Virus record (IMG/VR): IMGVR_UViG_3300036766_000032
Span: 11,897 to 75,896 of that record
Source: a virus
Reading direction: 5' to 3' (one strand)
DNA: 64,000 nt
The position numbers and the translations under genes are program-made. Shown here in pieces: positions 607 to 7,784 of this stretch. The notes below the pieces were generated by a model. The model was not told the DNA's origin, did not search any database, and saw only the letters and a list, made by a program, of their open reading frames with translations. How positions within the stretch are numbered: the stretch's first letter is position 1; each line of letters starts with the position of its first letter.

Positions 607-1002
607 ATGCTTCTTCCGGAAAAATATTCGTACAGCCCGTGGCGGATGCTCTGCGTCTGCCTCGTGCTGAATCGGAGTAAGGGGTCGACCCCTATGGGTC
701 CAATTGAGAAACTGTTTGAGGCGTTTCCGGAGCCCGAGTTGATGGCTTCTGCAAACTCTTCAAAGGTCTCGGTCATACTCAAACCGACCGGATTCCCGGA
801 CCGGAAGGCGGAGGCTCTCATCCGACTATCGAAGGCTTACTCCACTCGATGGGGGAAGAGTGACTTCGACCTGAAGAAACTTCCCGGGGTTGGTAAGTAC
901 GCCCAGGAGTCCTGGAGAATATTTATCGACGGGGACACCAACTTTGAACCGGAGGATCGGAAACTTAAGGCCCACGTGACAAAGGCGAAGAATGATAAAT
1001 GA
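607..1002 (+). CDS. HhH-GPD DNA glycosylase, MBD4-like
   Basis: PW.ML..LVLNRS.G, HhH LPGVGKYA, catalytic-Asp segment EPEDRKL (MBD4 has HPEDHKL). Confidence 0.85.
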   Translation: MLLPEKYSYSPWRMLCVCLVLNRSKGSTPMGPIEKLFEAFPEPELMASANSSKVSVILKPTGFPDRKAEALIRLSKAYSTRWGKSDFDLKKLPGVGKYAQESWRIFIDGDTNFEPEDRKLKAHVTKAKNDK

Positions 1003-1441
1003 GAAAATGTTGGGTAGTCTTGTGGGGCAGATGGCCCCCCTTGTTGATGATCCATCGAAGTGGGTGGGAGTTGACGACTTGATTGAAATATACCTTGAGG
1101 AGTTTAATCGATTTGAGAAGACGGTCGTCCACACTAATCCCGATCTGAAGACCAAGTTCTGGCGGGACTCCCTCGGGTTGATCCGTAGCCGGATCCGAGG
1201 TCAGGAGAAGTCAAACATTGACCTCCTTCGTCGGAAGCATGCCGCGTACGGGGGTAAGTCCCTAATCTGGTGTGGTCATCTTGGAGTGGTGACCCGGAGC
1301 CTGGACAAGTTAGCCCGGATCAAGAACCTGGGGAATAATCCGGGGGTCGACAATCTAAATGAGTCGACCAACGATTCTTGGTCGGATCTTTTCAACTACG
1401 CCGTCCTGGGGTATCTTTTGTCGAAGGGGGGGATCACCTGA
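992..1441 (+). CDS. Nucleotide-modification-associated domain 1 (DUF1599-like) protein
   Basis: KHAAYG...R..DKLARIKNL...NES..DSW.DL.NYAV pattern. Confidence 0.75.
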   Translation: MINEKMLGSLVGQMAPLVDDPSKWVGVDDLIEIYLEEFNRFEKTVVHTNPDLKTKFWRDSLGLIRSRIRGQEKSNIDLLRRKHAAYGGKSLIWCGHLGVVTRSLDKLARIKNLGNNPGVDNLNESTNDSWSDLFNYAVLGYLLSKGGIT

Positions 1442-2826
1442 TGTGCGGAGTCAACTACACTCCTCTCGGAAGGGAGGTAGCTGAAAAGATGAATGAGTCG
1501 ATCGCCCACCGTGGTTTGGTCGGACGATCGAATGTGGACATGATCGGTCGACAGGGTCATTTAGGTCACGTCCGGCTTCCGATCCAGGGACTGTCGACGG
1601 AGCACGATCAACCGTACCACGGAGGAGAGGGGGGACGATGGACGATGGGATTCGTCGGAGAGGTGTTCAACTTCCGGGATTTTGATCCGGAAGCCTCCAG
1701 CGACGTAGAGGTCCTGATGGAGACGTGGGATTCGGACGGACTGAATATATTCCCCTTGTTCGACGGGTTCTGGGCGTGCATCATCCACGACCTAATGGAG
1801 GACGTCGTTCATGTGGTCACCGATCCGTTGGGAAAGAAGCCGCTGTACATACACGCGGCCTCATGTTCAATCTCATCTGAGATTAAGGCCCTCATTGAAG
1901 TGGCCGGAATTGACGCCCGGATAGAGTTCGATGAACTGTACTTCTCATCTGTCCAGAAGTGGGGGTACCACGTCGGGGACGAGACTCCGATCAAAGGGAT
2001 CTTAAAGATCCGACCATCAACTCATCTAGTAATCCGAGATGGGAGGATCGTCTACGGGGAGAAGTACGTTGCAGTCAAACCGCGTAAAGTCGACCTACGT
2101 AACGCGATTGAGGTCTCAGTAAGTAACCGGATGGTTTCAGACGTTCCGGTAGCGTGTCTTCTGTCCGGAGGTCTAGACTCAAGCATCGTGTTCAAATTGA
2201 TGCTACGTCACCGCCAGGATTTTACCGTGATTCACGTTGACAACGGGGAAGAGGAGTTCCTGAACTATCTGGACATCCCATCATCAGTTACCGTGATCAA
2301 GGTCCCAAAGATAGACGATGCCGTTTCGATTGAGACCCTAAAGCAGATAGTGTTGGCTAATGAGAGTCCGTCCGATCTCGGGTCGATGATCCCTCAGTAC
2401 CGGATGTCAAAGGCCCTTAAGAAGAATGGTATCCACGTGGTCATGACCGGGGACGGCGCCGACGAACTGTTTGGGGGATACCGCCGGTCTCAAGAGTACG
2501 ACAGTCAGTGGAGCGACGTCTTTCAGGAACTGGTCTACTATCACCTGCCCCGGCTTGACAAATTGTCCATGGCGCACACTGTCGAACTTCGCAGCCCGTT
2601 CCTTAGCTTACCCGTCGTCGAAGCCGCCTTGGCGTTACCGTATGGGAGCCGCATCGATAAGAACGGGTTGAAGAGCGTGTTCACGGATATTATCCCGGCT
2701 CCGATCCTGGCACGTCCGAAACTCCCGCTGAAGTCCCCCCAAGTCAAGAATCTAGGCCTTGAATGGGTCCGACACCTGTGCAACGTCTACAAGGAGGCGA
2801 TCAATGAAAGTTACAGAAACGGATAA
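1441..2826 (+). CDS. Asparagine-synthetase-B-like glutamine amidotransferase
   Basis: N-terminal MCG (Ntn Cys), HRG, GHVRL, LSGGLDSS PP-loop, TGDGADELFGGY, ELRSPFL. Confidence 0.92.
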   Translation: MCGVNYTPLGREVAEKMNESIAHRGLVGRSNVDMIGRQGHLGHVRLPIQGLSTEHDQPYHGGEGGRWTMGFVGEVFNFRDFDPEASSDVEVLMETWDSDGLNIFPLFDGFWACIIHDLMEDVVHVVTDPLGKKPLYIHAASCSISSEIKALIEVAGIDARIEFDELYFSSVQKWGYHVGDETPIKGILKIRPSTHLVIRDGRIVYGEKYVAVKPRKVDLRNAIEVSVSNRMVSDVPVACLLSGGLDSSIVFKLMLRHRQDFTVIHVDNGEEEFLNYLDIPSSVTVIKVPKIDDAVSIETLKQIVLANESPSDLGSMIPQYRMSKALKKNGIHVVMTGDGADELFGGYRRSQEYDSQWSDVFQELVYYHLPRLDKLSMAHTVELRSPFLSLPVVEAALALPYGSRIDKNGLKSVFTDIIPAPILARPKLPLKSPQVKNLGLEWVRHLCNVYKEAINESYRNG

Positions 2827-6436: not shown

Positions 6437-7215
6437 AACTATATTCTGACCCAGAAGAAGCTATCAAAGCGACGACGACTCAGATTCAGAGGATGAACCA
6501 CCTAATTCACACGGAGAAGTGGCAGGGATTCGACATCTCGAAGAAACCGGAAGCTGAGATGCATGAGATTCTGGAGTGGGATTTCAAATTCCCCATGGTG
6601 GCCGAAGACCTCGGGTACTACCGGAAGCAGATCCAGCCGAACATCCCATGGGCCGACGACCACTTCGAGGAACGCGTCTCGGGGGAGCCGGTCAATCCCG
6701 GAGAGACGTGGAAGAACTGGCCTTGGGCTAACAAGGCGGATGAGTCCCGAATCTTCGACGGGAAGTTCAGTCACACGTACATGGAACGGTACTGGCCGAA
6801 AGTTATGAACGGGGTTGGCGTAGAGGGGCACCGATTTCTATATGGAGACTTGGACGACGTCGTCGCGCTTCTGACTAACGAGCCCCTGACTCGTCAGGCT
6901 TACCTCCCAATCTTCTTCCCGGAAGACACGGGAGCGGTCCACGGTAATCGGATTCCATGCACACTAGGCTATTGGTGGATCCGACGAGGGAACCATCTCC
7001 ACGTCCACTACCCGATCCGATCATGCGACTTTTACCGTCACTTCCGAGACGACATCTACCTTACGGTTCGTCTTACGATCTGGTTGCTCAAGGAACTTCG
7101 AGAGAAGTCTCCGGAGAAGTGGAACAACGTCAAACTCGGAACTTACTCTATGTGGATCGGAAGTCTTCACCTGTTCCGAAACGATTTCATAAAACTGTTT
7201 GGAGCGACCAAATGA
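6433..7215 (+). CDS. Thymidylate synthase / dCMP hydroxymethylase family protein
   Basis: TRQA, IPC catalytic Cys, RSCDFYRHFRDD, IGSLHLF. Confidence 0.85.
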   Translation: MKLYSDPEEAIKATTTQIQRMNHLIHTEKWQGFDISKKPEAEMHEILEWDFKFPMVAEDLGYYRKQIQPNIPWADDHFEERVSGEPVNPGETWKNWPWANKADESRIFDGKFSHTYMERYWPKVMNGVGVEGHRFLYGDLDDVVALLTNEPLTRQAYLPIFFPEDTGAVHGNRIPCTLGYWWIRRGNHLHVHYPIRSCDFYRHFRDDIYLTVRLTIWLLKELREKSPEKWNNVKLGTYSMWIGSLHLFRNDFIKLFGATK

Positions 7216-7784
7216 GACCGACAAGAGATTCTATTAACCTGAGCATCGCTCGGGTAGTAGCAACCCGGTCGACGTGCCTCAGGCGGTCGGTCGGTTGTGT
7301 TCTGACAGATGTTAGTGGTCACATACTTTCGACGGGTTACAACGGGGTGGCGCGAGGAGTCCCCCACTGTAATGACTCTATGGTCGCCCGGTTCCATCAC
7401 TTCACCGAGTTCACCTTCGCAGTTGACGGGTTGCGCGCCTCAGGAGTAATCACCAAGGACGCCCAGGTGGAGCCCGCTCCAGAAGGGCCGTACATGGTGT
7501 CGTATTACCCCGATGCGTGTCGAGGATCGAACTCTCCCAGCGGTACGAACTTAGATGGGTGTGGGGCGATCCACGCTGAGCAGAATGCTTTGCTACAGTG
7601 TCCGGACGTGTCGTTGATCCACACTTGTTATTGCACGACCGCGCCGTGCGTTACCTGCACGAAGCTTCTGATGAACACCGGTTGTCAACGGATCATCTTC
7701 ATTGAGGACTATCCCCAGTCAGGAGCGTCGAAGGATCTTGCTGAAAGACGAGGTATATTATGGGAACAAGAACTAATGGTTTGA
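7212..7784 (+). CDS. dCMP deaminase
   Basis: RSTC.RR.VG, GYNG, HAEQNA, PCVTC. Confidence 0.92.
   Translation: MRPTRDSINLSIARVVATRSTCLRRSVGCVLTDVSGHILSTGYNGVARGVPHCNDSMVARFHHFTEFTFAVDGLRASGVITKDAQVEPAPEGPYMVSYYPDACRGSNSPSGTNLDGCGAIHAEQNALLQCPDVSLIHTCYCTTAPCVTCTKLLMNTGCQRIIFIEDYPQSGASKDLAERRGILWEQELMV

Follow-up and report, generated by a model that had tools for sequence, protein, structure and literature searches.

A candidate cytosine-modification module built around a thymidylate synthase homologue in an uncultured sediment phage

Which base do eight tightly packed genes of an uncultured virus alter, and by what route? The genes occupy positions 607–7784 of the stretch of DNA analysed here (the window, 64,000 nt), which comprises bases 11,897–75,896 of IMG/VR record IMGVR_UViG_3300036766_000032. 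The record is a 75,896 bp viral genome with direct terminal repeats, is rated 100% complete, and the only sequencing run containing this DNA is a sediment metagenome, probably the sample of origin, with no RNA run listed for it. A sequence-only reading of the locus had described eight named genes as a pyrimidine-remodelling operon, and all eight were recovered on the + strand by Pfam, PHROG and phmmer matches, at the coordinates given below. Nearly all stop and start codons overlap, as that reading had it: the gaps along the eight genes are -11, -1, -23, +19, -4, -4 and -4 nt. We hold with moderate confidence that the genes form a phage module that replaces cytosine and modifies it further, with a thymidylate synthase (TS) homologue specific for deoxycytidine monophosphate (dCMP) at its centre. 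Cytosine in DNA is most likely swapped for a 5-substituted derivative, which is probably nitrogen-bearing. The idea of a modification module is retained, with its target narrowed from pyrimidines to cytosine. The features are as follows (MTase, methyltransferase; aa, amino acids; ORF, open reading frame; NTP, nucleoside triphosphate).

607–1002, + strand: MBD4-type HhH-GPD DNA glycosylase, 131 aa, a stand-alone catalytic domain (Pfam HhH-GPD, 28.9 bits; cut-off 26.2)
992–1441, + strand: Nmad1/DUF1599-like all-helical protein, 149 aa (PF07659, 21.6 bits, below the cut-off of 25; phrog_1485, E = 1e-8)
1441–2826, + strand: AsnB-family glutamine-dependent PP-loop amidotransferase, 461 aa (Asn_synthase, E = 9.5e-43; GATase_7; GATase_6)
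2804–3424, + strand: all-alpha NTP pyrophosphatase of the dimeric-dUTPase (dUTPase_2) type (PF08761, 35.7 bits against 22.9; phrog_12184, E = 3e-20)
3444–5558, + strand: C5-MTase homologue, whole ORF (PF00145, 45.8 bits; cut-off 22)
3444–3701, + strand: N-extein of the C5-MTase-like enzyme (motif I GVGS to motif IV SHPE)
3702–4589, + strand: intein, 296 aa (Hint domain, Cys-rich stretch, DUF559/Vsr-like endonuclease at about 4200–4433)
4590–5558, + strand: C-extein of the C5-MTase-like enzyme (catalytic Cys in CGNFS; motifs VI DDL, VIII QKNRKR, IX RIQGAPDDF and X QVGK; Cys-rich tail)
5555–6436, + strand: NPPY amino-MTase, 293 aa (N6_N4_Mtase, 51.5 bits; weak HemK/CcrM-like NCBIfam matches)
6433–7215, + strand: TS-fold enzyme, predicted dCMP C5-hydroxymethylase or -methylase (phrog_160, E = 3e-26)
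7212–7784, + strand: dCMP deaminase, 190 aa, with HAE ... PCVTC (PF00383, 52.5 bits against 25; phrog_174, E = 4e-36)

The TS homologue has no Pfam match, and its best solved relative, the cytidine monophosphate (CMP) hydroxymethylase MilA, is matched weakly (E = 0.0024). It keeps the catalytic Cys (IPCTLGYW) and, in RSCDFYRHFRDD, carries Asp at the position of Asn177 (N177) of ThyA. The sequence-only reading had rightly listed a TS homologue and a C5-MTase homologue, and overlooked this Asp in the one and the 296-aa intein in the other. The Asp is present in all 33 TS homologues of the module and in 40 of the 40 TS homologues that adjoin MTase-like genes. An Asn-to-Asp change at this position turns TS from deoxyuridine monophosphate (dUMP) to dCMP (Yang et al., eLife 2021, PMC8670742), which points to dCMP rather than dUMP as the substrate and implies that the enzyme is dCMP-specific. 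In the isolated phages with the closest Asp-type TS (Brevundimonas phage Strzyga, L001:8141–8980, and L002:2909–3679), a second TS-fold paralogue without the catalytic Cys is found directly upstream; one record annotates this paralogue as 'pyrimidine hmase synthase'.

Two other pool enzymes are encoded in the operon. The dUTPase_2-type pyrophosphatase is proposed to act on deoxycytidine and deoxyuridine triphosphates (dCTP and dUTP), and relatives hold a PRA-PH/MazG gene in its slot, while the dCMP deaminase has an insertion before its HAE motif. Together with the TS homologue they recall the conversion of deoxycytidine (dC) to 5-hydroxymethyl-dC in phage T4 by gp56 (dCTPase/dUTPase), gp42 (dCMP hydroxymethylase), gp1 (deoxynucleoside monophosphate, dNMP, kinase) and cd. 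Shared with T4 are an all-alpha NTP pyrophosphatase, an Asp-type TS fold and a dCMP deaminase, along with a dNMP kinase in most relatives of the module and the logic of excluding dCTP and supplying a 5-substituted dCTP. However, the TS homologue is not close to gp42 (T4 was not matched), the module lacks a glucosyltransferase and the window phage a kinase, and the AsnB-like amidotransferase, a C5-MTase homologue with Lys in motif X (Lys-type), Nmad1 and the MBD4-like glycosylase are extra. A second likeness is to the MetaGPA modified-cytosine module, where the same core (Asp-type TS, PRA-PH or dUTPase_2, and dCMP deaminase) occurs on uncultured phage contigs. That core is tied by experiment to modified-cytosine phage DNA, and Asp-type TS, PRA-PH, dCMP deaminase and dUTPase_2 are enriched on modified-cytosine contigs of environmental viromes (PMC8670742). 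Its accessory is a TobZ-like carbamoyltransferase that decorates 5-hydroxymethylcytosine (5hmC) (PMC8670742), whereas here the accessories are the AsnB-like amidotransferase and/or the C5-MTase homologue.

A lack of co-occurrence of the genes elsewhere had been named as a finding that would refute the operon's interpretation; the genes do co-occur, a reduced, reordered set being found in dozens of uncultured viral contigs. Relatives of AsnB are encoded on 459 viral contigs, which were retrieved with an alignment query (a single-protein AsnB query found none); the best 80 of these were compared over 10 kb on each side by tblastn and ORF clustering. The Asp-type TS homologue is present in 32–33 of the 80 loci, the dCMP deaminase in 24–28, a pyrophosphatase in 25 (13 dUTPase_2 and 12 PRA-PH/MazG), the MTase homologue in 21 and the NPPY MTase in 13, while Nmad1 (4/80) and the MBD4-like gene (1/80) are rare accessories. 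Gene order varies with the phage backbone, for example TS-kinase-AsnB-PRA-PH-deaminase, PRA-PH-Nmad1-TS-...-AsnB-deaminase or pyrophosphatase-MTase-TS-AsnB. Where AsnB and the Asp-type TS occur together (n = 32), a pyrophosphatase and the dCMP deaminase are usually near, and a dNMP kinase often is. The hub of the module is taken to be the Asp-type TS homologue with pyrophosphatase and deaminase. The complete genome G001 has the first of the orders given above, with AsnB and with the MTase homologue nowhere in the genome, and the reverse is seen in G012 (complete) and G014 (92% complete), which have the MTase homologue and the Asp-type TS and lack AsnB. On gene content, therefore, a T4-like core for 5-substituted dC has two independent add-ons, AsnB and the MTase homologue. 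The presence of MTase-like genes on the AsnB tree likewise needs at least 5 gains or losses. A dependence of AsnB on the product of the MTase homologue was considered and rejected because of G001.

The AsnB-family enzyme starts with Met-Cys (the N-terminal Cys nucleophile) and has a glutaminase domain and an SGGLDS PP-loop, which is invariant among its relatives. It might simply make asparagine, as the product of an auxiliary metabolic gene. In such a reading the locus would serve ordinary metabolism and methylation with no hypermodified base: thymidine monophosphate would be made by a methylate-first-then-deaminate route, or the DNA would contain 5-methylcytosine (5mC), as that of phage Xp12 does, and the MTases would be orphan anti-restriction enzymes. 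All of the genes do belong to families with housekeeping roles, and many phages, Strzyga among them, have clustered genes for TS, deaminase and pyrophosphatase; AsnB and the MTase homologue are both absent from Strzyga. We nevertheless consider this explanation very unlikely. AsnB scores below the cut-offs of the asparagine-synthase equivalogs, with 223.7 bits against TIGR01536 (cut-off 267.1) and 160 bits against PRK09431 (cut-off 499). Its homologues number thousands, of which the best 120 (42–52% identity) are all metagenomic, and its relatives form a virus-only clade that is tightly linked to Asp-type TS and dNMP kinase genes in differing gene orders. In 64 of the 80 loci the gene directly upstream of AsnB encodes a small P-loop protein matching phrog_761 'thymidylate kinase', and this pairing argues for a mononucleotide as the predicted AsnB substrate. 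In the AsnB tree, the window protein belongs to a clade of 31 members, each with the TS homologue, the MTase homologue or both.

Two other arrangements were seen around AsnB relatives. Some 44 loci of T4-like uncultured phages with a Gp23 capsid (L028–L087) have the Tmk-like kinase as the sole partner of the AsnB relative; a TS homologue was found neither within 10 kb nor along five partial contigs (75–131 kb), and hhalign comparison of the conserved AsnB neighbours in this clade with the TS, deaminase, pyrophosphatase and kinase alignments gave nothing. In L054 (2079–3350) and L057, a gene for S-adenosylhomocysteine hydrolase lies between the Asp-type TS and the NPPY MTase, adjoining AsnB, a variant that implies heavy transfer from S-adenosylmethionine (SAM).

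The second add-on, the C5-MTase homologue, is split by the intein exactly at its catalytic Cys. The boundaries read C...KN|C, the +1 residue being that Cys, and the penultimate residue of the intein is Lys instead of the usual His. The insert scores 38.2 bits with DUF559, 43 bits with MTES_1575 and 19 bits with TIGR01443 (above the cut-off of 15.6), while its Intein_splicing and Hint matches are weak. In 55 homologues without the insert the protein is joined exactly at ...GHPE|CG..., and homologous inteins occupy the same site in 10 other representatives of the family (P0149, P0126, P0124, P0132, P0121, P0142, P0164, P0127, P0131 and P0176), five of them full-length with the nuclease (30–39% identity) and five mini-inteins without it. 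By these alignments, the insert at 3702–4589 is an intein of a recurring one-site family.

Once the intein is set aside, the enzyme belongs to a small and divergent clade: a HMMER pass with the C-extein over 1.84 billion representative proteins returned only 214 matches. The catalytic Cys is invariant across the clade, and the presence of motif VIII RxR and motif IX places it within the PF00145 superfamily. The other motifs are GxGS (I), G-H-P-[ESDK]-C-G (IV), D-[ND]-L (VI) and T-G-K, sometimes with Arg (X), whereas canonical C5-MTases in the same alignment have PPCQ, ENV and GN (IGNAVP) for motifs IV, VI and X. In the window the motif-X Gly-Asn of SAM-dependent 5mC methylases is replaced by Gly-Lys. 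The clade has lost the Asn in motif X and the Glu in motif VI that working 5mC methylases keep without exception; it is also seldom represented and nearly always adjoins an Asp-type TS, and these features again speak against plain methylation. The enzyme is predicted to act on DNA; its isoelectric point (pI, 8.8) is basic, as DNA enzymes tend to be, and its motifs are those of DNA enzymes.

Replacement of the motif-X Asn by a basic residue has a precedent in the CmoA-CmoX-CmoY system of Synechococcus phage S-B43, whose products are 5-carboxymethylcytosine and the glycine amide of that base (Yang et al., Nat Commun 2025, PMC12783734; PDB 8YF3). Arg350 of the S-B43 enzyme (SpCmoX) binds the carboxymethyl group of carboxy-SAM (PMC12783734), and the motif-X Lys of our clade aligns with this residue. 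The locus could then be a CmoX/CmoY-type pathway without CmoA, in which the Lys-type MTase homologue would use carboxy-SAM from host CmoA to make 5-carboxymethylcytosine in DNA, AsnB would amidate it to 5-carbamoylmethylcytosine, and TS, deaminase and pyrophosphatase would be nucleotide supply. An engineered M.MpeI accepted carboxy-SAM after an Asn-to-Lys change (N374K), and E. coli CmoA sufficed for SpCmoX in vivo (PMC12783734). AsnB-homologue ligases often adjoin CmoX, one ligase cluster having a glutaminase domain and being a predicted ammonia user, and Streptomyces phage TurkishDelight has CmoX with such a glutaminase-bearing ligase; S-B43, too, has a pyrophosphatase gene nearby.

For all that, we judge a pathway of the CmoX/CmoY type unlikely here. 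Arg-type CmoX proteins have SPPC, ENV and GR with CmoA as a constant neighbour, and the conserved Glu of their ENV contacts cytosine N3/N4; SPPC was the motif IV by which Yang et al. defined CmoX candidates, and CmoA lies on most CmoX contigs (PMC12783734). The window enzyme instead has SHPE|C (GHPEC in the clade), DDL and Lys. The N374K change resembles it in motif X, yet here the Lys is natural and combined with altered motifs IV and VI; carboxy-SAM is no more than a candidate cofactor here. CmoA (TIGR00740) was found in none of six genomes with the clade, five of them at least 92% complete, against 5/5 genomes with Arg-type CmoX, and for this reason the idea that the clade is a CmoX using a phage CmoA was rejected; tblastn detected CmoA in 0/35 of the clade's loci. 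In a reciprocal scan of these loci (n = 35) the Asp-type TS adjoins the MTase homologue in 32, the other three being cut contigs, and AsnB is present in 23; the constant partner is thus the TS and not AsnB. The enzymes form a small separate clade and, with this fixed partner and without CmoA, are not plain members of the CmoA-CmoX-CmoY system. The same two findings speak against carboxymethylation of residual cytosine with host carboxy-SAM, as opposed to transformation of a 5-substituted base.

Nor does AsnB look like CmoY. It has a glutaminase domain, aligns with SpCmoY (otherwise not detected) only over the PP-loop (BLASTP, E = 0.089), and matches the CmoY-type gp124 of TurkishDelight (79.7 bits) no more closely than it does E. 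coli AsnB (74.5 bits). Unlike in the S-B43 system, AsnB and the MTase homologue are each found without the other, as in G001 and G012, and the usual neighbour of AsnB is the kinase. The pI values of AsnB (5.76) and the DNA-acting SpCmoY (5.78) do not separate DNA-acting from nucleotide-acting enzymes. More distant Lys-type MTase-like groups (L121, L122, L154, L155 and L161) likewise adjoin Asp-type TS genes. A further Lys-type C5-MTase-like group (loci L124–L162, e.g., L124:4930–5664), with motifs G[HA]PDCGHSS, MENLP and TVTKTPPY, lacks both TS and CmoA within 10 kb.

In at least 10 relatives (P0123, P0147, P0125, P0153, P0124, P0144, P0156, P0130, P0159 and P0240; 33–47% identity), the NPPY MTase forms the C-terminal part of a fusion with the C5-MTase-like enzyme, and the two therefore probably work together. 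HemK/PrmC proteins, which methylate a carboxamide nitrogen, are among the best NCBIfam matches of the NPPY MTase, so its target might be the modified base and not adenine.

The glycosylase matches the human and mouse MBD4 glycosylase-domain structures (phmmer, E = 8e-17) over residues 3–122 against 11–128 of the 138-aa domain, that is, over the full catalytic domain, and its PEDRKL aligns with the Asp-bearing PEDxKL segment (PEDHKL) of MBD4. It differs from its mammalian counterparts in being phage-encoded, rare in the module and without the methyl-CpG-binding domain. MBD4 excises T, U and 5-hydroxymethyluracil opposite G, and by analogy with this family specificity the phage enzyme would fit repair of deaminated modified cytosine; a T:G glycosylase would suit plain 5mC equally well, a point in favour of the ordinary-methylation explanation. 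Small proteins of 138–148 aa with weak similarity to the UDG superfamily lie beside the module, in the slot of the MBD4-like gene, in L063 (9298–9744), L054 (6073–6489) and about eight other loci, and may represent a different glycosylase fold recruited to the same job.

The Nmad1 protein fills the slot directly upstream of AsnB where most relatives have the dNMP kinase. Its aligned homologue in L054 scores above the DUF1599 cut-off (26.4 bits), and the conserved motif is K..DYG / R / E...D...D..Y. An AlphaFold2 model (pLDDT 81) has six helices; its top VIA-align matches were dimeric dUTPases (Z 6.5 and 5.7), a MazG-related protein (5.2) and PRA-PH (5.0), values that lie below significance for helical bundles and are a hint only. 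Foldseek found no match to the model, a word-index protein search with Nmad1 returned nothing beyond the query, and hhalign found no relation to the PRA-PH, dUTPase_2 or kinase alignments. One PHROG family, phrog_18404, has a PRA-PH/MazG domain followed by an Nmad1 domain. Given this fusion, the E...D...D motif and the non-significant structural matches, it is possible that Nmad1 is a diverged NTP pyrophosphatase-like domain of the all-alpha type.

Returning to the cytosine module, its working can be sketched, the pool-level steps following from family roles and the T4 paradigm. The pyrophosphatase would convert dCTP (and dUTP) to the monophosphate, the Asp-type TS homologue would place a one-carbon unit on C5 of dCMP, 5-hydroxymethyl being likelier than 5-methyl, and the deaminase would turn dCMP into dUMP for thymidine triphosphate synthesis, like T4 cd. 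The AsnB-like enzyme would hydrolyse glutamine and use ATP (to AMP) to transfer ammonia onto the modified mononucleotide; our best guess, and the most speculative step, is that the 5-substituent is activated and aminated to give a nitrogen-bearing 5-substituted dC. With Nmad1 in the kinase slot, the window phage would rely on host kinases. At the DNA level, intein splicing would restore the catalytic Cys, after which the Lys-type C5-MTase-like enzyme, likely in cooperation with the NPPY amino-MTase, would further derivatise DNA cytosines, its target being either the 5-substituted base or residual plain cytosine. The MBD4-like glycosylase would remove T or 5-hydroxymethyluracil left opposite G by deaminated modified cytosine. 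The three layers seen in the sequence-only reading (precursor pool, DNA-level transferases and repair glycosylase) are supported by this arrangement.

Several points weigh against such a scheme. Every step of the scheme is a deduction, and by sequence a hydroxymethylase and a methylase are here indistinguishable. Co-occurrence may in part reflect shared ancestry of related phages and not functional coupling. No dNMP kinase was found in the window phage genome, and T4-type pathways need one. We know of no precedent for an AsnB-family enzyme acting on a nucleotide or a hydroxymethyl group, and CmoY, the sole characterised phage AsnB relative, amidates a carboxylate on DNA (PMC12783734). Finally, full replacement of cytosine would leave a C5-alkylating MTase homologue without its ordinary substrate, and the role of that enzyme is then unexplained unless replacement is partial or the chemistry is new.

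The latter possibility can be made explicit, although as a whole it is doubtful: the AsnB-like enzyme would be a nucleotide-level amidotransferase and, in addition, the Lys-type C5-MTase homologue would act on 5-substituted cytosine in DNA, both chemistries being new for their scaffolds. For AsnB this would mean ATP-dependent activation of the TS product and exchange of its oxygen for ammonia from glutamine; 5-hydroxymethyl-dCMP, for instance, would become 5-aminomethyl-dCMP. The MTase homologue would attack C6 with its Cys and exchange or extend the 5-methylene substituent, rather than alkylate plain cytosine; thiaminases and TenA make a Cys attack at C6 on 4-amino-5-hydroxymethylpyrimidines. 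If true, the 5-aminomethyl product would be a new, positively charged cytosine in DNA.

The earlier statement that the gene combination matches no known pathway holds for the set as a whole, which no published pathway fits, and is too strong for its parts, which have clear analogues in T4 gp56/gp42/cd, the MetaGPA core and CmoX/CmoY. No publication describing the combination was found, and searches of the literature on AsnB in phage hypermodification, DUF1599, Nmad and dCMP hydroxymethylase gave nothing relevant. Among isolated phages, megablast with the operon gave no match, and tblastn with AsnB and with the MTase C-extein gave distant matches only (at most 29% identity); the AsnB and MTase add-ons are therefore carried by no cultured relative.

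The operon does not stand alone in the genome. Genes for VWA, DUF932, family-A DNA polymerase, PD-(D/E)XK nuclease and SNF2 helicase proteins lie on its 5' side, and genes for a DHH phosphoesterase and an ATP-dependent ligase on its 3' side. Since these are of replication type and the tight packing extends beyond both ends, the operon belongs to a longer run of early/replication genes. Promoter-like and terminator-like sites at the operon are no more frequent than in shuffled sequence. One further gene lies directly upstream:

171–605, + strand: Lys/Ala/Pro-rich basic protein, 144 aa, pI 10.5 (from its translation)

It has no Pfam or PHROG family match, and homologues of this Lys/Ala/Pro-repeat protein (29–41% identity) are found upstream of the module in L017 and L018; it is possibly a DNA-binding partner outside the core. 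Far from the operon, among the structural genes, a 1007-aa multidomain protein (50511–53534, - strand) combines Acb1 (anti-CBASS phosphodiesterase), RyR, class-I methyltransferase and Zeta-toxin/AAA_33 kinase domains.

Which defences a phage evades, whether restriction, CRISPR or glycosylases, depends on its modified bases, and such bases have been a recurrent source of tools, 5hmC chemistry and carboxymethyl labelling among them. The module is widespread in uncultured phages, as the number of contigs with an AsnB relative alone indicates, and has no cultured member. What the window adds is threefold: the genome is complete and has terminal repeats, it encodes an MBD4-type repair enzyme, and its transferase is predicted to depend on splicing of an intein. 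Known systems leave the signatures of two families unexplained: an AsnB clade confined to viruses and tied to a dNMP kinase, and a clade of C5-MTases that combine motif-X Lys with motif-VI Asp and are tied to a dCMP-type TS. If both were worked out, a further cytosine derivative would probably come to light, and the C5-MTase scaffold might prove capable of a new type of reaction.

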